A stretch of DNA of 64,000 nt from Oscillibacter sp. MSJ-31 (GTDB lineage: Bacteria > Bacteroidota > Bacteroidia > Bacteroidales > Bacteroidaceae), in NCBI GenBank assembly GCA_963629785.1, contig CAVGJZ010000008.1, forward strand, positions 6,938 to 70,937, in the 5' to 3' direction. A program made the position numbers and the translations under genes. The notes under the pieces were generated by a model. The model was not told where the DNA came from and did no database searches. It saw nothing but the letters and a program-made list of their open reading frames with translations. Shown here piece by piece: positions 4,122 to 63,800 of the stretch; position 1 is the stretch's first letter; the number at the start of each line of letters is the position of its first letter.

Positions 4122-5162
4122 ATGAACACAAGGAAAATAGCCAAAGGTATGGCGATTCTTTTCGCTGCGCTGCTGATAGCGGCATGCGCAAAAGAGAAAA
4201 AGGCAAGAGACTTTATACAACCCTGCAAGGTGATGATAGCCAAGCAATGCTCGCTCGAGAACAAGTGGTATTATGTGGGTGAGGTGAATGCCAAGACATC
4301 CACGGGAGTGGGTTTCAAGGTGCCGGGCACGGTAACGAAAATATACGTGAACGAGGGCGACCGGGTTACAAAGGGACAACTGCTGGCAGAACTAGACCCA
4401 CAGGACATGGAAAACAGCTACAACATGGCGCGCGCCACACTCAACCAGGCGGAGGACGCCATGCGCCGCGTGAACATAATGCACGAAGAGCAGAGTGTGT
4501 CGGACATCAAATACGTGGAGGTGCAGACAAAGCTGGAACAGGCACGGAGCATGTACTCTGCGGCGAAGAAGAGGCTCAACGACACAAAGCTGTACGCCCC
4601 AGTGTCGGGAGTGATAGGAAAGAGAGGAATTGAAGTGGGCGAAAGCTACGGCATGGTGCTCTCTGCCTTCACCATCCTCGACATTGACAATGTGGTGGTA
4701 AAGATACCTGTCCCCGAACGCGAGATTCCAAACATCAAGAAAGGCGACGAGGCAAAGGTTTACGTGCTCGCGCTTGGTGACTCCACATATTTCAACGCCC
4801 GCGTTGATGCCATCGGCGTGTCGAGCGACCCTCTCACCCACAGCTACGAGGCGCGCCTGAACATAAAGACCCCCGGCCACAAGCTTATGCAGGGCATGGT
4901 GTGCAACGTGCAGCTGTGGCCCAAGTCCACACAGGGCCGCAAGGGCTTCATACTGCCCATCACCGCCGTGAAGCTCAATACCGGCGACAGCTACTATGTG
5001 TGGGTGTCGAAAAACGGCAAGGCATACCGCCAGCCGGTGGACGTGGGCATGTACTCCAAGGACGGAGTGATAGTCTACGGCGGCATCAACGACGGGGACC
5101 ACGTCATCACCGAGGGACAGAGCAAGATATGCGACGGTCAAACGATAAAGGAGGCTAAATAG
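4122..5162 (+). CDS. Efflux RND transporter periplasmic adaptor subunit (HlyD/MFP family), lipoprotein
   Basis: Lipoprotein-type signal (LLIAACAKE). Barrel-sandwich/coiled-coil pattern typical of MFPs. Located immediately upstream of the RND pump. Confidence 0.9.
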   Translation: MNTRKIAKGMAILFAALLIAACAKEKKARDFIQPCKVMIAKQCSLENKWYYVGEVNAKTSTGVGFKVPGTVTKIYVNEGDRVTKGQLLAELDPQDMENSYNMARATLNQAEDAMRRVNIMHEEQSVSDIKYVEVQTKLEQARSMYSAAKKRLNDTKLYAPVSGVIGKRGIEVGESYGMVLSAFTILDIDNVVVKIPVPEREIPNIKKGDEAKVYVLALGDSTYFNARVDAIGVSSDPLTHSYEARLNIKTPGHKLMQGMVCNVQLWPKSTQGRKGFILPITAVKLNTGDSYYVWVSKNGKAYRQPVDVGMYSKDGVIVYGGINDGDHVITEGQSKICDGQTIKEAK

Positions 5163-5163
5163 G

Positions 5164-8100
5164 ATGGGCATGCCAAATTTCACAAAGTTCACGATGCACA
5201 ACTACAGGCTCGTCGTGTTCTTCATTATGCTACTCATAAGCGGCGGACTGGCTTCGGTAATGGTTATACCCAAACAGGAATTCCCGGAATTCAAAATGGC
5301 AATGGGAATGCTTGTTGCCGTCTACCCTGGAGCGACTGCCGATGAGGTGGAGAAGCAAGTGTCCGAGCGTCTGGAGGAATACCTCGTCACATTCCCCGAA
5401 GTGGAATCCCGCGAACTGGAGACAACGTCGAGCGACGGAATGTGCGTAATAAAGATAAAGCTCAACGATGAAGGGACGAAAAATCCCAATGCCGTATGGG
5501 GAAGAATACGCGACGGACTGCCGTTGCTGCAGAAGACCGTTCTGCCCAGAGGCCTGCTCGGGGTGGCTATCCTCGACAATTTCGGCGACGCGGCGGCGGA
5601 ACTGATAGCCCTCGACAGCAAGGACAAGAGCTACAGGGAACTCGACGAGTATGCCTCGAAGCTGAAGACAAGCCTGCAGGAGGTGAAAAACATAACCAAC
5701 CTCAGGAAGCAAGGTGTGCTGCACGAGCAGATAAGCATCTATCTCGACAGGGAGAGAATGGTGCGCTTCGGGGTAAGCAGCACAATGATAAATGCCGTAC
5801 TCGCCATGCAGGGACTCACAACGGGAGGCGCACATATCGACACTGACAAGGCGGACATGCCCATCTACGTCACGTCGAATTATCTGACGGAGCGCGAGCT
5901 TGCCGACCAGATAATACTCAACGACCCCAGGGGCAGGATAGTAAGACTGAAGGACGTGGCGCGCGTGGTGCGCGAATATCCGGAGGTGAAGAGCTACATC
6001 AACAACAACGGCAACCGTGCCGTGCTGCTGTGCATGGAGATGAAAAGCGGCGGCGACATTCTCGACTTCGGCAAGGACGTGGACAAGAAGGTGGAGGAAT
6101 TCCAGAAGACGCTGCCGCCCGGAATAAACGTCACCCACATTGCCAACCAGCCCAAAGTGGTAAAGGATGCCATAGTGGGTTTCTTCGGCGACTTCATAGA
6201 GGCCATCATTATCGTGCTGGTTGTGATGATGCTGCTGTTCCCCATAAAGTCGGCATTCGTGGCGGGAATATCCATCCCAGTAACGATGGCGATAAGCATC
6301 GGCGTGCTGAACCTGTGCGGCATACCTCTGAGCACGCTCACGCTGGCATCGCTCACGGTGGCATTGGGAATGGTGGTGGACGACACCATAATCGTCATTG
6401 ACGCCCACCAGAAGATGCTGAGGCAAGGGCACTCTCGCTGGTACGCTTCGGTGATGAGCGCCCACAAGTTCTTCCCTTCAATCTGCGTCGCCACATTGAG
6501 CATCTGCTTTGTGCTGCTGCCGGCGACACTGTTCATGCCCAAGTTCTACTGTGCGTTCATAGAGGTTTTCATCCATACCCTCAGCATATCCCTGATGGTG
6601 TCCCTCTTCGTTGCCATGACACTTGCCCCGATGCTCAACTTCAAGTTCCTGGGCAAAAGCTCCGCCAATAAAATCAACGAGAAAGAGTCCCGACTGCTGG
6701 CTCCCGTACAGAAAGCCTACGAGAAGGTGCTGGCGAAAAGTTTCGTTCATCCGTGGGTCTGCATTGGCGTATGCCTGCTGATAGTCATCGGCGGTGCGGT
6801 ACTCTTTACCAAGATCCCCGTGCAGATGATACCCAAGGCAGACAGAGACCAGTTCGTCGTGGAAATATACAACCCCAACGGAACAAGCATCAAGCATACG
6901 GCCAATGTTACCGACACCGTTGCCATGGAACTGAAAAAGGACAAGCGCGTGAAGGACGTGACAACGTTCGTCGGCCAGCTGATGCCGCGCTTCATGGTTT
7001 CCGCGCCGATGTCGATGGGTGGAAAGTCATTCTCGCAAATCATCGTGAGGAGCACCGGCAAGGAGCAGACCCTTGACTTGCTGCGCGACTACACCGGGTA
7101 TTTTGAGGACAGGTGGCCCGACACATACGTCAGAATGTACCAGCTGTCTTATGCAATGGCTTCCAATCTGAGTGTGCTCATAGAGGCCGACACCGACGAG
7201 CACCTGCATCAGGCTGCCGACTCCATAAAACAGTTTATGCGCTCCATAGACGGTCTTCTGTGGATCCACGACTCCTTCGGAGAAAAAACTCCTGTGGCAC
7301 GCATTGACCTTGACCCTATCAGCGCGGCGCAACTTGGCATAACACGACTTACGGTAGAGACAAACCTCGCCATGAGATACGGTGGCTTCAAGGCCGGAAG
7401 TATCTGGGACAAAGACTATGAGATGCCGGTGATGCTCTATACCGCAGACCGCAACACACAGAAGGATGCCAGCAGTATTGGCGACGAATATATAGGCTCG
7501 GCACTTGGCAAGAGTACCCCGCTGCGGCAGTTTGCAAAGGTGACGCCAGAATGGCGCGACGGATGCAGAAAGCGCGTGCAGGGCAGACCGTATGTAAACA
7601 TACAGGCGGACATAAAGCCCGGCTACAGCCAAGCCTCCATAACGAAGGAAGTGCAAAACTACATATACAAGACGCTGCTCCCGCAAATGCCTGACGACGT
7701 AAGGACAAGACCTTGGGGGTCGGCACTTATAAACAAGGACATTTCCGACGCCCTGAGCAAGGGCATGGTGGTAAGCCTGTTCGTGATATTACTCGTAATG
7801 GTGGTTAACTTCAAGCGTTTCCGCCTTGCAGGTCTCGCCATGACAGGCACACTGCTCGCAATACCCGGAGCGGCGATAGGAATGATACTGTCTGGTGTGG
7901 ACTTCAACATCATGTCGATGCTCGGTGCATTCTCGCTCCTCGGTATCGTAATGCGCAACGCCGTCATCATGTTCGACTATGCCGAAACACTGCGCAAGAA
8001 AGGCATGAGTGCATACGAAGCCGCCATGGAGGCAGGAAAGCGGCGCATGATACCTATCGTGCTGACCTCTGCCACCACGGCCTTCGGCGTGATACCGCTT

Positions 8101-18174: not shown

Positions 18175-18573
18175 TTGGGATTATACCTACAACCTACACT
18201 TGGTGAGACTTAAAAAATTCCACCTTAAAAGTTGATGATGCAAAACTACATCTTTTTCCGGACATCGCCAAACGGTTCTATGTTGAACTTACGAGCATTT
18301 CCCTGAACGTGCGCCATTTTGGCCCACATGGCAGGATGCCCAATTCTTCCAGCCACATACTATGTGAAGCTGCACAAAATGCAAGTGAGTTTTGTACGTC
18401 TCATATAATTGCCGTAACTTTGCGGACATCGAGACACTGGCGTGACGGCACATGCCGCAAGCTTTCCCGAAACGCCAGATAATTATCAGCCCTGCCTAGC
18501 AATGGGAAGTATCATAATGGAAAAAAGAGATTTATCAACACCCTCTCAGAGGGATTAATTGCACCCATTATAA

Positions 18574-19584
18574 ATGGATTGGAACAATTTTAGCTTTATT
18601 GACTTATTTGCCGGTATCGGCGGCATCAGACTGGGTTTTGAAGCAGCCGGAGGGCATTGTGTGTTTTCTTCTGAATTTGACGAAAATGCCTGCAAGACTT
18701 ATGAAGCAAACTTCGACGAGCATCCCTCTGGCGACATAACAAAAATCGACGCAAATGATATTCCGGACTTCGATATTCTCCTTGGCGGCTTTCCATGCCA
18801 AGCATTTTCCATCATAGGGAAAAAAGAAGGATTTGAAAATGAAACTTGCGGAACCTTGTTTTTTGAGATAGAGAGAATCCTAAAAGCAAAAATGCCCAAG
18901 GCTTTTATGCTTGAAAATGTAAGAAATCTGACGGCCCACGACAAGGGGAACACCTTCAAGGTGATACGAACCCATCTGGAAGCTTTGGGGTACACCGTCT
19001 ATGCCAAGGTTTTGAATGCGCTGGACTATGGTGTTCCACAAAAGAGAGAGAGGATTATTATCGTTGGCTTCAAGGACAACATATTCTTTTCATTTCCTGA
19101 CCCTGTGCCTGTTTACAAACGGAAAACTCTCAAGGACATTTTAGAGGACGACGTGGACGAGAAATACTATGTCAGGGATAAAATCAGAGAGTCAAGGCTC
19201 ATGCGCCTAAAAGACCCCAATTATCCCAAGCCATATATTTCGCATGAGAATATGGCCGGCAGCATTACGCCGCACCCCTACTCCTCTTGTCTGAGAGCAG
19301 GCGCTTCCGCCAACTACATACTGATAAACGACGAGCGGCGCCCGACGGAACGGGAGATGCTAAGAATACAAGGGTTTCCTGATGATTTCAAGATAGTAGT
19401 TCCATATAGTCAAGTGAAGCATCAAACCGGCAATTCCGTAGCTGTCCCTGTCATCAAAGCTGTCGCAAAACAAATGATTGACGCATTGAAAACTTTTGAA
19501 TCAAGCAAGAACAATGATAACAAGAGAACAAGCAAAAGCAGCTTTAGACACAGTCATCAAGAAATCCAGAGCACACTGGTATAA
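18574..19584 (+). CDS. DNA (cytosine-5)-methyltransferase, type II R-M
   Basis: C5-MTase motifs appear in order: FAGIGG (I), GFPCQAFS (IV), ENV (VI), QKRER (VIII), GNSVAVPV (X). The region looks AT-richer than its flanks. Confidence 0.92.
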   Translation: MDWNNFSFIDLFAGIGGIRLGFEAAGGHCVFSSEFDENACKTYEANFDEHPSGDITKIDANDIPDFDILLGGFPCQAFSIIGKKEGFENETCGTLFFEIERILKAKMPKAFMLENVRNLTAHDKGNTFKVIRTHLEALGYTVYAKVLNALDYGVPQKRERIIIVGFKDNIFFSFPDPVPVYKRKTLKDILEDDVDEKYYVRDKIRESRLMRLKDPNYPKPYISHENMAGSITPHPYSSCLRAGASANYILINDERRPTEREMLRIQGFPDDFKIVVPYSQVKHQTGNSVAVPVIKAVAKQMIDALKTFESSKNNDNKRTSKSSFRHSHQEIQSTLV

Positions 19585-20569
19585 GCCAATACAAGTGGCG
19601 GAAATCCTGTATAGAGACAGGGTTCACAAAGACATAAAGCTCCGCTCATTGGAAGACTATAGAACGAAGAGCAAGAAATGGAGAGACGAGGTGTCCATCG
19701 GGTTACTTGGAAGGGTCTGCACGAGCAGCACCCGATTCCAAGACGACCTGTTTAACGACAACGCAACTCCTCCTGCCATTCTTGAAGTTTTGGGAAAAGA
19801 AAATCGCCGGACTAAAGGTGCAGTAGAGGCATACATCTACAGTAAGTTTGACACCAAACATGAGCAGCTGTCAAACGCATTGTCTTATTGTCTGGATGGA
19901 GACACCAAGACATTTATGGTGAAGAACTTTATAGACTCTTTCTGGAATGAGCCGGGATTGAAGAGAAGTCTTGATAAGATCTATGAAATCATTGTGTACG
20001 CCTTATTTTCAACATTGGTTGACACCATGAATCTTGAAGTTGAAGTCACTGTAAAAGAAGACGCTTATCCTTTGCTAAAGGAGTTTGAAGACTTTACACA
20101 AAAAGTGATGTGTTTAGACTGTTCATCTCCGCGACACATACAAGAAGCGAAGGTCTATCGGGTTGGTGTAACAAATGCTGCTGACAGAGGTCTGGACATG
20201 TATTCAAATTGGGGACCTGCTATCCAGATTAAACACTTGAGCCTGGACTTTTCTCTTGCAGAAAACATTGTAAACAGCATTTCGAGTGACCGTATTGTAA
20301 TTGTTTGCAAAGATGCAGAAAAAGACGTGATAGTGTCTCTTCTAACCCAAATCGGTTTGAGAAGCCACATCCAGGGCATTGTCACTGAAAATGATTTAGT
20401 CGACTGGTACGAGAAAGCCCTTCGGGGAAGTTACTCCGACCAATTGGGGGAAAAGCTTCTTTATTGCCTTGCGAGCGAAATAGCGGAAGAGTTTCCTTCG
20501 GCAGACAGAACTCCTGATATAATAAAGGAGAGACACTACGAATTGATTTCAGACCCGTTCTGGCAATAA
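19496..20569 (+). CDS. Putative type II restriction endonuclease partner of the C5 methyltransferase
   Basis: It overlaps the 3' end of the MTase gene on the same strand. A candidate PD-(D/E)xK core is GLDMYSNWGPAIQIKH. The alternative start is 19514 (MITREQ). The family is not assigned. Confidence 0.7.
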   Translation: MNQARTMITREQAKAALDTVIKKSRAHWYKPIQVAEILYRDRVHKDIKLRSLEDYRTKSKKWRDEVSIGLLGRVCTSSTRFQDDLFNDNATPPAILEVLGKENRRTKGAVEAYIYSKFDTKHEQLSNALSYCLDGDTKTFMVKNFIDSFWNEPGLKRSLDKIYEIIVYALFSTLVDTMNLEVEVTVKEDAYPLLKEFEDFTQKVMCLDCSSPRHIQEAKVYRVGVTNAADRGLDMYSNWGPAIQIKHLSLDFSLAENIVNSISSDRIVIVCKDAEKDVIVSLLTQIGLRSHIQGIVTENDLVDWYEKALRGSYSDQLGEKLLYCLASEIAEEFPSADRTPDIIKERHYELISDPFWQ

Positions 20570-20598
20570 AGCAAGTGACGACAAAAAAAAACACCACA

Positions 20599-20936
20599 GC
20601 ACTTGCTATATACCCTTTGTGCAACATTTGAAAAGTGTTCCAAATGTCGCATTTTACAGATGTGGAACTTGCTGAGATTTTAACCGAATTTCGCCGTTCT
20701 TTTATGATAAATACAAAATGTTGATAATCAACACAATAGATATATCTCAAAAACCGATACCCCAAAACCTCGGAGAAAACGATAGCTTTTCGGGGAGGAA
20801 ACGATAGCTTTGCCCGGAGGAAACGATAGCTTTGCTCCACGAAAAGCACTGCTCATTAAAATCAGACAAAAGAATAAAGTGTTCCAAATGTCTTATTTGT
20901 AAAACATTTTGCAAACATACTCCAAACGCCTATACC
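20599..20936 (-). repeat. Copy A of the TIR-bounded palindromic element, with the left terminus missing
   Basis: It aligns along its length with copies B and C. The right end CTCCAAACGCCTATACC is present. The left TIR is absent and homology starts at GCACTTGCTATATACC, 30 bp after the endonuclease stop. Confidence 0.75.
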
Positions 20937-27398: not shown

Positions 27399-27522
27399 AT
27401 ATTCCGCCTTATAAATGCAAAGGTAAAACATAAATCTTACGTTCACAAATTTAGTGAACATATTTAGTATCATTTCACCTGTGTTCCAGCTAACCGTCAA
27501 AGCCCAAGGGACGCTTTGCCGA

Positions 27523-27610
27523 CCGTGCATCGTACGATAAGAGATTGCACATCGTACGATAAGAGACCGTGCATCGTACGATAAGAGGTCGTGCATCGTA
27601 CGATGTACAG
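27523..27610. repeat. Four head-to-tail 22-bp repeats, each carrying the perfect palindrome ATCGTACGAT
   Basis: Units begin at 27523, 27545, 27567 and 27589 (CCGTGC-ATCGTACGAT-AAGAGA and variants). Palindrome centres are spaced exactly 22 bp apart. Confidence 0.9.
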
Positions 27611-27750
27611 TCGGAGAAGCTACGCTTTGAAGCCGGGGAAACGGCTTTTGAAGCAAGAGCCGTGCCCGGAACACTGTTTTTGGAAGGCGGAAAGGGCGTG
27701 TTACGATTATTTTATATAACTTTGCCGACATTATTATATATACAACATAA

Positions 27751-41726: not shown

Positions 41727-41830
41727 CTTGCCATACGACCGTATGCCCCTTGCCGTACGACCGTATGCCCCTTGCCGTACGATTGTATGCCTCTTGCCAA
41801 ACAATCGTACGGCAAGAGGCATAAGGCAAG
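41727..41830. repeat. Three direct 22-bp repeats (CTTGCCGTACGACCGTATGCCC type) followed by an inverted partial unit that forms a 13-bp hairpin
   Basis: Units lie at 41727, 41749 and 41771. The hairpin pairs TATGCCTCTTGCC (41786-41798) with GGCAAGAGGCATA (41811-41823) around a 12-nt loop. Confidence 0.85.
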
Positions 41831-41910: not shown

Positions 41911-42276
41911 TATAGGTATAGGCATTTAGGGCATATATACAAAATGTTTTACAAATAAGACATTTGGAACACTTTGTTTTGGGGTCTGATTTTAAGGAGC
42001 AGTGCTTTTCGGGGAGGAAACGATAGCTTTGCTCCCCGAAAAGCTATCGTTTTCGCCGAGATTTTGGGGTATCGTTTTTTAGGATGTATATATTATGCTG
42101 ATTATCAATATTTTGCATTTACCCTAAAAGAACAGTACAATCCTGTTAAAATTCAGGTAAGTCCCACATCGGCAAAATGCGACATTTGGAACACTTTTCA
42201 AATAACACACAAAGGGCATATAACAACACCTTAAACAGAGCATTTTGTGAGTGCGCCCTAAATGCCTATACCTATA
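41911..42276 (+). mobile_element. Copy B of the TIR-bounded palindromic element (MITE-like), reference copy
   Basis: Perfect 22-bp terminal inverted repeats TATAGGTATAGGCATTTAGGGC / GCCCTAAATGCCTATACCTATA. It also carries the internal GACATTTGGAACAC direct repeats and a cruciform core. Confidence 0.6.
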
Positions 42277-42343
42277 AAAAATGTTGCCGAGCAATATTTT
42301 GCATGGCAACACTTTGTTTATTTTCGTTTTCACCGTGAAGGAA

Positions 42344-42850
42344 TCAGTCTTCATCGTTTTCCGCATCACTCTCGTCATCCCCGGCAGGCTCATCGCAGAT
42401 GGGCAGCTGACGGTTGAACGCCGAATTGAAGGATATAATCGTCTCGCTGCGCGACAAGCCGAGGGGCTGCAGACGGTCGTGAATAATATTGAGCAGATGA
42501 TGATTGTTCTGAGCGTAAATCTTGATGAACATGTCGTAGTCTCCCGTGGTATAATGACACTCCACCACTTCGGGTATGCGCCTCAGCTCTTCCACCGCCT
42601 CGTCGAAATTCTCGGGATGCTTCAGGTTAAGCCCAACGTAGGCGCAGGTTTCGTAGCCTATCTTTTCGGGGTCGATGATAAACTTTGACCCCTTGATTAC
42701 TCCAAGGTTGGTGAGTTTCTGAATGCGCTGGTGTATTGCCGCTCCGCTCACGTTGCAGGCTCTCGCCACCTCAAGAAAGGGAATGCGCGCGTCTTCGGCT
42801 ATCAACCTCAAGATTTTCTTGTCTAATGAATCCAAACTATGATGTGCCAT
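42344..42850 (-). CDS. Lrp/AsnC family transcriptional regulator with an acidic C-terminal tail
   Basis: LDKKILRLIAEDARIPFLEVARACNVSGAAIHQRIQKL followed by an RAM domain. The tail is DEPAGDDESDAENDED. Confidence 0.88.
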   Translation of the reverse strand: MAHHSLDSLDKKILRLIAEDARIPFLEVARACNVSGAAIHQRIQKLTNLGVIKGSKFIIDPEKIGYETCAYVGLNLKHPENFDEAVEELRRIPEVVECHYTTGDYDMFIKIYAQNNHHLLNIIHDRLQPLGLSRSETIISFNSAFNRQLPICDEPAGDDESDAENDED

Positions 42851-62350: not shown

Positions 62351-62735
62351 TAGGTATAGACGTTTAGGACGCACTTACAAAATGCTCTGTTTAAGGCGTT
62401 GCTATATACCCCTTGTGTGTTGTTTGAAAAGTGTTCCAAATGTCGCATTTTGCCGATGCAGGACTTGCGGAAATCTCAACCGAATTTTGCCGCTCTTTTA
62501 GGATAAACGCAAAATATTGACAATCAACATAATATACATATCCTAAAAACCGACACCCCAAAACCTCGGCGAAAACGATAGCTTTTCGGGGAGCAAAGCT
62601 ATCGTTTCCTCCGGGCAAAGCTATCGTTTCCTCCCCGAAAAGCACTGCTCCTTAAAATCAGACAAAAAACAAAGTGTTCCAAATGTCTTATTTGTAAAAC
62701 ATTTTGCAAGCGTATTCTAAACGCCTATACCTATA
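62351..62735 (-). mobile_element. Copy C of the TIR-bounded palindromic element (complete)
   Basis: TIRs TAGGTATAGACGTTTAGGA / TCTAAACGCCTATACCTA match at 17 of 19 positions. It is collinear with copy B in reverse orientation and carries one extra 22-bp core unit. Confidence 0.6.
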
Positions 62736-62929
62736 AAAAAAATAACGTGGCACAGTTTGAGAAGGGTGAAATGTCGCCTGAGCCGTGCTACGCAACGAAA
62801 AAACACGCTGACACATTTGTGGATTACACTTATTCGCCATACCTTCGCAGAGGGAATGCCCAAGCACCGAAACACATACTATATATATAATAAGGTGGAA
62901 AACAAGAAACAAAACATATCTCAAAGCTT

Positions 62930-63430
62930 ATGAAGAAACAACACGCAAGACTTATGGCAGCCATGGTGGAATATGACCGTGGCGATGCCGCGAGAATCCA
63001 GCATTTCGTCAAAGTTCATGATTTCGCAGCCACTATAGGCAATTTGGAAGGGGTGGACAAGGACACGATGTTCATCCTCGAGACTGCCGCCATCCTCCAC
63101 GACATCGGCATACACAAGAGCGAAAGCCTCTACGGCGACTGCAACGGCAAGCACCAAGAGGAGCTGGGGCCCGCCGAGGCTCTAAGGTTGATGCAGGACG
63201 TGGGAGGGTACACCGCAGAGCAGATGGACCGCGTCTGCTTCCTCATCTCACGCCACCACACCTACACGGGAGTGGACGGCATCGACTGGCAGATTCTTCT
63301 CGAAGCGGATTTCCTTGTCAATTCCTTTGAGGACAAGCTTTCTGCCGATGCCATCGCACACTTTGAGGAAAAGGTTTTCAGGACGGAAACAGGAAAACGG
63401 TTGCTCGATTTAATGACGGTAAAAAAATAA
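62930..63430 (+). CDS. HD-domain phosphohydrolase
   Basis: AAILHDIG (HD motif) and RHHTY in a 166-aa protein. Confidence 0.82.
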   Translation: MKKQHARLMAAMVEYDRGDAARIQHFVKVHDFAATIGNLEGVDKDTMFILETAAILHDIGIHKSESLYGDCNGKHQEELGPAEALRLMQDVGGYTAEQMDRVCFLISRHHTYTGVDGIDWQILLEADFLVNSFEDKLSADAIAHFEEKVFRTETGKRLLDLMTVKK

Positions 63431-63526
63431 GTTGGTATGTATTCATAGTTCTCAAATCGTACCAAGTTGTTTTTTATCGTCACTTAATTCAGGGGTTATA
63501 TTATTTTCGGAAGAATGTCGAAAAAC

Positions 63527-63800
63527 GACATTTGGAACACTTCTGATTTCCTTGCATTTAGCAGAGCACTGCTTTTCGGGGAGCAAAACTATCGTTTCCT
63601 CCTCGCAAAGCTATCGTTTCCTCCCCGAAAAGCAGTGCTTTGCTAGGAGAAAACGACACCTCCTTTTAAAGTATATCTACACTATATTGATTATCAATAC
63701 CTTACAAGAATCACAAAACACACTTTCAAACCATCTCAAACTCCCGATATTTACGCCACGCAAATTACGACATCTGGAACATTTCTATCAAAAGATTTAG
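63527..63800 (+). repeat. Copy D of the palindromic element, degenerate and without clear TIRs
   Basis: It contains GACATTTGGAACAC (63527-63540), the core CTTTTCGGGG-41 bp-CCCCGAAAAG (63572-63632), TTGATTATCAAT, and a second GACATCTGGAACAT (63769-63782). Confidence 0.5.

Follow-up and report, generated by a model that had tools for sequence, protein, structure and literature searches.

The repeat that occurs four times in the window (the whole stretch of 64,000 nucleotides that was analysed) is a small, non-coding, MITE-like composite element, whose paralogous copies, here called A to D, carry at their centre a hairpin that is found in two orientations. The orientation of this hairpin core is a fixed property of each site across the strains examined and not a switch; of orientation and unit number, only unit number is demonstrably labile. 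We consider it likely that the two states go back to an old inversion of the hairpin loop, of the template-switch type, which would have been inherited by the sub-family to which copies B and C belong, with slippage acting on the units, and that each state is now fixed at its site.

Copy boundaries were taken from pairwise blastn, and the four copies were 350-413 bp in length. Copies A, B and C are mutually 79-83% identical and D is 62-68% identical to A-C, with the flanks of the paralogous cores being 79-88% identical. All copies are intergenic, and their neighbours are unrelated housekeeping genes. Copy A (20597/20603-20963, plus strand), which is without the left terminal inverted repeat, lies between a HaeII-type restriction-modification cassette and the 3' end of xseA; homology with strain L064 begins at 20597, and an orthologue of this copy was found in six further assemblies. 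Copy B (41911-42274, minus strand) is full length, with terminal inverted repeats at 41913-41946 and 42241-42274, and is located between the asnC terminator and a TPP-riboswitch/TonB-dependent receptor operon. Copy C (62351-62763, plus strand), also full length with terminal inverted repeats at 62351-62384 and 62700-62733, is placed between tonB and an HD-domain gene. The diverged copy D (63442-63791, minus strand) is found downstream of the HD-domain gene and has two boxes; a search for terminal inverted repeats around it revealed none.

The terminal inverted repeats that end B and C (TAGGTATAGGCRTTTAGG..., 20-34 nt) include a perfect 20-mer, TAGGTATAGGCATTTAGGGC, at each end of B, and the 34-nt terminal arms of C are 82% complementary. 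Being small, non-coding, multi-copy and intergenic, and having these terminal repeats, the element is MITE-like. In each copy, the 17-bp box AAAGTGTTCCAAATGTC is present twice in direct orientation, 243 bp apart (copy A, 20632-20648 and its direct-repeat partner 20876-20892; copy C, 62428-62444 and 62671-62687; plus strand in both), and this direct repeat bounds an inner 243-bp module. The dinucleotide TA was found at both ends of the site B element in the window, L067 and L069. One side of the site C copy has AT and not TA, and homopolymer runs obscure the boundaries; in L004, an 87%-identical relative, a different gene occupies this site. No clean empty site was recovered among the loci compared.

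The host is an uncultured Bacteroidales species, probably of the Prevotellaceae. The window has a G+C content of ~53%, and the closest named relatives of the flanking proteins are in Prevotella and Marseilla (Prevotellaceae). Three open reading frames of 122-155 aa (42281-42688, plus; 63432-63800, plus; 20382-20849, minus) overlap or abut the repeat copies; none of them matched Pfam, and they are probably spurious. Over an MksE-like remnant beside the site B repeat, too, open reading frames were placed by gene callers in other assemblies.

The core of each copy is a hairpin whose loop consists of one or two 22-bp units. A script comparison of A (20796-20836) with C (62592-62632) gave a reverse-complement match at 41 of 41 positions, with the flanks of the copies being collinear, and thus reproduced the exact 41-bp inversion of the original prediction. 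The assignment of A and D to one state and of B and C to the other was confirmed in the same way: D (63582-63622) has 3 mismatches to C on the same window strand and, D being a minus-strand element, groups with A when read in element orientation. Re-reading of 42015-42033 also bore out the single 22-bp unit that had been described for B. The inverted arms are real, but their length is 13 bp and not the 10 bp originally given; they are perfect (GCTTTTCGGGGAG / CTCCCCGAAAAGC), except for one mismatch in the right arm of A (CTCCACG). With arms of 13 bp, only the loop, of 37 nt (15 nt in B), can be called inverted without ambiguity; over their full 63 nt, the hairpins of A and C are 98% complementary.

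In copy A, the hairpin (20785-20847, plus strand) comprises the left arm at 20785-20797, a 37-nt loop of two F units at 20798-20834 and the right arm, with its one mismatch, at 20835-20847. That of copy B (42004-42044, minus strand) has perfect 13-bp arms around a 15-nt loop, a single unit that is R relative to the element. The hairpin of copy C (62581-62643, plus strand) likewise has perfect 13-bp arms, and its 37-nt loop of two R units is the exact reverse complement of the loop of A. In copy D (63571-63633, minus strand), two F-state units are enclosed by arms that are lengthened to 29 nt (63559-63587 / 63617-63645). Written as unit strings in element orientation, A is F|FF, C is F|RR, B is F|R and D is F'|FF. 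The half-palindromic 13-mer AAACGATAGCTTT, of which each 22-bp unit has one, was matched 10 times in the window compared with 0.07 matches expected by chance; all 10 are inside the four cores, at a spacing of 22 bp whichever the orientation or state. In folding predictions for single-stranded DNA, arms and loop formed hairpins with energies between -16 and -31 kcal/mol (z between -3.2 and -6.9), the values being -17.3 kcal/mol (z -3.6) for the hairpin of copy A, -16.0 kcal/mol (z -4.2) for that of B and -30.9 kcal/mol (z -6.9) for that of D.

The orientation at orthologous sites was read from strain contigs of independent ENA and Logan assemblies, which had a nucleotide identity of 95.4-95.8% to the window over 6-22 kb. 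They were recovered by exact-protein look-up with a close XseA homologue, the AsnC and XseB of the window and a member of the HD-protein cluster, and conspecific contigs were obtained for three of the four sites (A, B and C). Among more distant AsnC homologues (L011-L013), synteny was different and the element was absent; copy D is missing from the conspecific contigs L087 and L088. At site A, six assemblies (ERZ15610153, -097, -140, ERZ15609953, ERZ15610547, -574) have F|FF with two units in the same element orientation as the window. At site C, the F|RR of the window was found in L087 and L088, and the R state in L089 and L090, where the last unit and the right arm only are present. At site B, L069 and L072 have two units, F|RR, compared with the one unit, F|R, of the window, so that the unit number is polymorphic at an orthologous site (37-nt versus 15-nt loop). 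Including the window, the state is F in 7/7 at site A, R in 5/5 at site C and R in 3/3 at site B; in 12 locus-by-assembly comparisons, no orientation flip was observed.

The difference between A and C had been taken as direct evidence of an ongoing flip/flop. It is, however, a difference between paralogues, and with no flip in the 12 orthologous comparisons it does not carry that meaning. Of the claim that the segment inverts and expands or contracts, it holds that both have occurred in the history of the family, and the one versus two units at site B illustrate the latter; inversion as an ongoing process is not supported. A single orientation per locus across strains had itself been named as the outcome that speaks against active switching, and this is the outcome at all three sites.

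An active, reversible flip/flop at every site, with the assembled state representing the majority form only, would be in keeping with the perfect 13-bp arms and the strong predicted hairpins, as well as with the presence of two states in one genome with zero sequence change. The whole site B element is oppositely oriented in the window and in other strains, and several assemblies break in or beside the core: the contigs L089 and L090 begin within the loop, and L074 and L075 stop just beyond the box. These breaks are, however, accounted for by exact repeats common to the copies, B and C sharing 49 identical nt. Given further that the 12 orthologous comparisons at three sites contain no orientation difference, that orientation follows the element sub-family and that the window encodes no recombinase, we regard such a flip/flop as improbable. 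Both orientations at one locus were found at none of the sites A, B and C in consensus assemblies; since these mask minority forms, switching within a population may occur rarely or at low frequency.

Palindromes and short tandem repeats are a classic source of mis-assembly, which would be the most trivial explanation of two orientations. Yet the F state at A and the R state at C were reproduced by metagenome assemblies of independent samples, A in six and C in two complete and two partial ones. The inversion is thus not an assembly artefact, and the probability of mis-assembly at the palindromic repeat is negligible.

Neighbour-joining trees were calculated on leader and tail with the loop removed. 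The site-A copies (six plus the window, all in the F state) were monophyletic in 300/300 bootstraps, and B- and C-site copies were intermingled. Orientation is thus a sub-family character that is inherited with the copies, and with a monophyletic site-A clade, a single change on the branch between A and B/C suffices. When D was used as the root, the R-state copies became paraphyletic in ~75% of bootstraps. Since D is only 47-60% identical, rooting with it is unreliable for polarity, and this paraphyly leaves two events, or the opposite polarity, possible. From these trees, we infer that one or two ancient inversions would explain the data.

The core has the hallmarks of a hairpin-mediated small inversion or template-switch loop inversion, in that stem-forming inverted repeats bound the segment exactly, stems and flanks are unchanged and the loop is an exact reverse complement. 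For the event that we consider likely, the starting point would be the central hairpin, with its two 13-bp G+C-rich arms around one or two 22-bp units. By a replication error, the nascent strand would have jumped at one arm to the complementary template and returned at the other. Reversal of the loop in place would have happened a single time, or on a few occasions at the most, as the family diversified. The inverted state would then have been passed down in the B/C sub-family, with the A lineage and the distant D holding the other state, and replication slippage would gain or lose entire 22-bp units. Loop inversion via inter-strand template switching has been documented (PMC8794818), as have recurrent hairpin-bounded small inversions in plastomes (PMC6824564). 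A hairpin or template-switch process had been among the causes originally proposed, and it is a sensible one given the exact reverse complementarity of the loop between perfect stems and the predicted hairpins. The perfect arms bear no footprint that would separate template switching from arm-to-arm recombination. A spacer of 15-37 bp would be too short for the synapsis of two double-stranded arms.

Indirect support for template switching comes from a separate array at 41727-41827 (minus strand), which lies outside copy B and carries an inverted unit of its own. Its 22-bp unit GGCATACGGTCGTACGGCAAGG, which has dyad symmetry, is present in three direct copies and one inverted copy that form a 16-bp perfect hairpin, a product such as template switching would yield. 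The array has the same architecture as the core and similar dynamics, the window having 22 bp (one unit) more than L067-L071 at 41727-41799. It is absent from L009, a 79%-identical relative.

A palindromic origin would dispense with inversion in place altogether. If a longer array of the form F...F R...R had existed, deletion of different halves would have yielded F|FF and F|RR. Units occur in both orientations in the core, the right arm is a degenerate R-type unit and the arms of D are F'/R' units; the array at 41727-41827 likewise mixes direct units with an inverted one, and gain and loss of units are demonstrably frequent. This course of events is nevertheless unlikely, as it requires two base-precise, independent deletions that give equal 37-nt loops in exact reverse complement, the spacer CCCGG/CCGGG included, and no longer-palindrome intermediate was seen in 13 copies from at least 10 genomes.

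The site-specific process that had been suggested as the other possible cause is unlikely in view of the gene content. Neither a Pfam scan of ~50 open reading frames of the window nor the Pfam annotations that had been precomputed for the strain loci revealed an integrase, invertase or transposase domain, and a cognate recombinase, as would accompany an inverton, was thus not found within the 64-kb window and the strain loci. Bacteroidales are rich in invertons, and the segment is flanked by inverted repeats, as would befit a miniaturised Bacteroidales invertible promoter that is inverted by a dedicated recombinase at the 13-bp arms. We hold this to be very improbable, since neither the 64 kb nor the strain loci contain a tyrosine or serine recombinase domain, the spacer measures 15-37 bp, the orientation is fixed per site and the arms, instead of forming a recombination site of their own, belong to the repeated units.

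Template switching followed by inheritance leaves one property of the core to be accounted for, in that a neutral accident alone does not explain the invariance of the loop in both orientations. Comparing 11 copies, variable sites were found at 2/63 positions in the hairpin versus 59/196 in the rest of the module (Fisher p = 1.9e-6), and at 0/37 positions of the 37-nt loop in either orientation. The surrounding module diverges by 8-18%, and orthologous leaders differ by 6-13% between strains with a genome difference of ~4.5%. The loop is equally conserved as itself and as its complement, which argues for a constraint on double-stranded DNA and against a role as single-stranded RNA. The pattern of substitutions suggests a strand-symmetric constraint at the DNA level, for example by phased dimer-binding sites, or homogenisation among copies.

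Only tentatively, and with far more doubt than confidence, do we put forward a functional version of this idea, according to which the core would be a selected, strand-symmetric site with 13-bp half-palindromes every 22 bp (two helical turns). It would be bound as double-stranded DNA by a putative dimeric protein and be carried in a 243-bp cassette, which would enter or leave a host MITE in one piece at the 17-bp box. Binding of such a protein would explain a substitution-free loop in a diverging module; if this were true and the exchange were site-specific, the element would represent an undescribed kind of miniature cassette in Bacteroidales.

At site B, where the element of the strain loci L067-L075 is located around 6579-6961, structural variation goes beyond unit number. 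A long form is present in the window, L069, L072, L074 and L075, and a 141-bp short form, consisting of inverted repeat, one box and inverted repeat, in L067, L068, L070, L071 and L073. The short form is without the whole 243-bp module (leader, hairpin and one box). Since a 17-bp direct repeat, AAAGTGTTCCAAATGTC, forms the edges of this module, one of two events would separate the forms, a deletion between these repeats or the site-specific insertion of a cassette. Copy D and a diverged relative at the asnC site of L009 (79%-identical species) have module and boxes without the outer inverted repeats, which hints that the module exists independently of the outer element.

The whole site B element of the window is opposite in orientation to that of all other strains, with the junction after the asnC terminator being the same. 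On the right flank, the other strains have 557-870 bp of an MksE-like gene remnant between the element and the shared TTTGCCGTTGG, and the window is without this remnant. The window copy is 85-91% identical to the copy of the other strains, compared with ~96% in the flanks. This whole-element flip may reflect either an inversion in place, between the inverted repeats, or the replacement or re-insertion of the element.

In L009 (~79% identical species), a D-like, strongly diverged module was observed at 4640-4860, at the same asnC/TonB-receptor site; its units, phased at 22 bp, have the sequence of a perfect palindrome, AAAGCAATGCTTT. The palindromic units of L009 imply that the unit family predates the species, and the palindromic form of the unit may be the ancestral one.

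A search of Rfam 15 at gathering thresholds revealed no family in the window; in E-value mode, sub-threshold look-alikes of miRNA hairpins appeared over the cores and were rejected as spurious. The element was not found in GTDB representatives, JGI metagenomes, IMG/VR and the plasmid and phage collections. The core pattern TTCGGGGAGSAAASSWWWSSTTT gave three matches in GTDB representatives, of which the one in L001 is coding sequence and not the element, and the other two, single matches in Lachnospiraceae-type genomes, are presumed to be due to chance. The box pattern retrieved one unrelated AT-rich locus from the JGI metagenomes. In IMG/VR, the core pattern had 0 matches, and the 50 single matches of a 16-mer of the box included none with a second feature of the element. 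The plasmids of PLSDB and the phages of INPHARED gave no blastn match. Scans of the repeat for sigma-70 promoters and terminators were uninformative, the sigma-70 type being probably inapplicable to Bacteroidota, and manual inspection of the conserved boxes for the Bacteroidetes -33 TTTG / -7 TAnnTTTG motif revealed near-misses only, with A-type copies being without the second TTTG.

We conclude that the element family is previously undescribed and that its inversion is a phenomenon of known kind, a hairpin-mediated small inversion. Bacteroidales invertons are comparable in that a segment flanked by inverted repeats occurs in two orientations in one genome. Invertons switch at a single site within a population, require a site-specific recombinase, measure ~150-300 bp and carry a promoter. 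In contrast, the segment described here is fixed per site, has no recombinase nearby and is 15-37 bp long. The flip/flop of parvovirus ITRs and poxvirus telomeres similarly involves two mutually reverse-complementary forms within a palindrome; these are, however, ends of linear replicons, where both forms arise in each replication round by hairpin transfer, whereas the present hairpins are internal to a chromosome with one stable form per locus.

Among known MITEs, the Correia elements (CREE) of Neisseria resemble the element in being small and in having terminal inverted repeats, of ~26 bp. An internal segment distinguishes their long form from the short one, a TA target duplication is probable, and their functions are known to include promoters, an IHF site and RNase III cleavage. 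Their sequence is unrelated, they belong to a different phylum and they have no internal hairpin of tandem units. Inversion of whole Correia elements has been reported (PMC10969869).

The closest likeness of the loop inversion is to small inversions in plastids and to template-switch loops in rRNA and miRNA, where the segment between short perfect inverted repeats is likewise an exact reverse complement, with collinear stems and flanks and without a recombinase; formation of a hairpin, or a switch of template between strands at replication, accounts for them (PMC6824564; PMC8794818). In plastids, one site flips recurrently among species, with 5-7 changes per site (PMC6824564), whereas here the state is fixed per site and the two states separate paralogous copies. 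The template-switch loops of rRNA are 4-8 nt in length, in contrast to the 15-37 nt of tandem units found here.

As to architecture, the element resembles BrickBuilt, a MITE of P. gingivalis (Klein et al. 2015, PMC4596501), which is also an intergenic non-coding Bacteroidales repeat with leader, tail and small terminal inverted repeats. BrickBuilt has internal tandem units of ~22-23 nt, whose number varies by copy and strain, with predicted stem-loops and no Rfam match (PMC4596501). Membership in BrickBuilt was rejected, as the unit and inverted-repeat sequences given in that paper and its supplement are unrelated to those found here: BrickBuilt has AGACCATAGTATCCTCTCATATG as its unit and GAGACCTTTGCA (IS5-type) as its inverted repeat, compared with GGAAACGATAGCTTTGCCCGGA and TAGGTATAGGCRTTTAGG, respectively. 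BrickBuilt can moreover have as many as 23 direct units, and an inverted state has not been reported for it (PMC4596501), in contrast to the one or two units inside 13-bp inverted arms described here. The element is a new member of the minisatellite-bearing MITE class.

When dispersed copies of a repeat differ in orientation, this is no evidence of a switch. The question is settled by comparing orthologous sites across strains, which here points to an old, inherited inversion. The analysis adds an undescribed modular MITE-like family from an uncultured Bacteroidales lineage and a clean bacterial case in which a hairpin loop as long as 37 nt shows an inversion of template-switch type. Leads on the function of the repeat are given by the orientation-independent conservation of the hairpin and by the presence or absence of the 243-bp module between strains. 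In practical terms, these elements break short-read assemblies, and automated pipelines could mis-call them as invertons.

Several further features were observed in the vicinity of the copies. Upstream of the operon that encodes a TonB-dependent receptor, a PnuC-like transporter and thiamine pyrophosphokinase, the TPP riboswitch (RF00059, 41498-41597, minus strand) scored 44.6 bits, below the gathering score of 54.3, with E = 2.8e-7, and was missed by the default gathering-threshold scan. The cassette of a HaeII-type restriction endonuclease and a C5-cytosine methyltransferase (18296-20596) separates xseB from copy A as a strain-specific insertion, the place of which is taken by 28 bp in L064 and five other assemblies, and on the Logan contig SRR13434631 (L084), the methylase also adjoins xseB.

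At the right end, the window ceases to be homologous to the conspecific strains at 63412. This position falls within the 3' end of the HD-domain gene, whose product has 166 aa in the window and 164 aa in the strains. Everything rightward of this position, from copy D onward, is missing in L087 and L088, which run into a DUF4450 gene, and the 87%-identical L004 matches the window to at least 63464. A third 22-bp tandem array in the window, at 27521-27626, consists of 3.7 copies of CGTGCATCGTACGATAAGAGAT and adjoins a higB/HTH toxin-antitoxin pair; its unit number likewise varies between strains, L064 being shorter by two units (44 bp). An array similar to this third one was observed upstream of a DUF4450 gene in L088 (~4384-4478).
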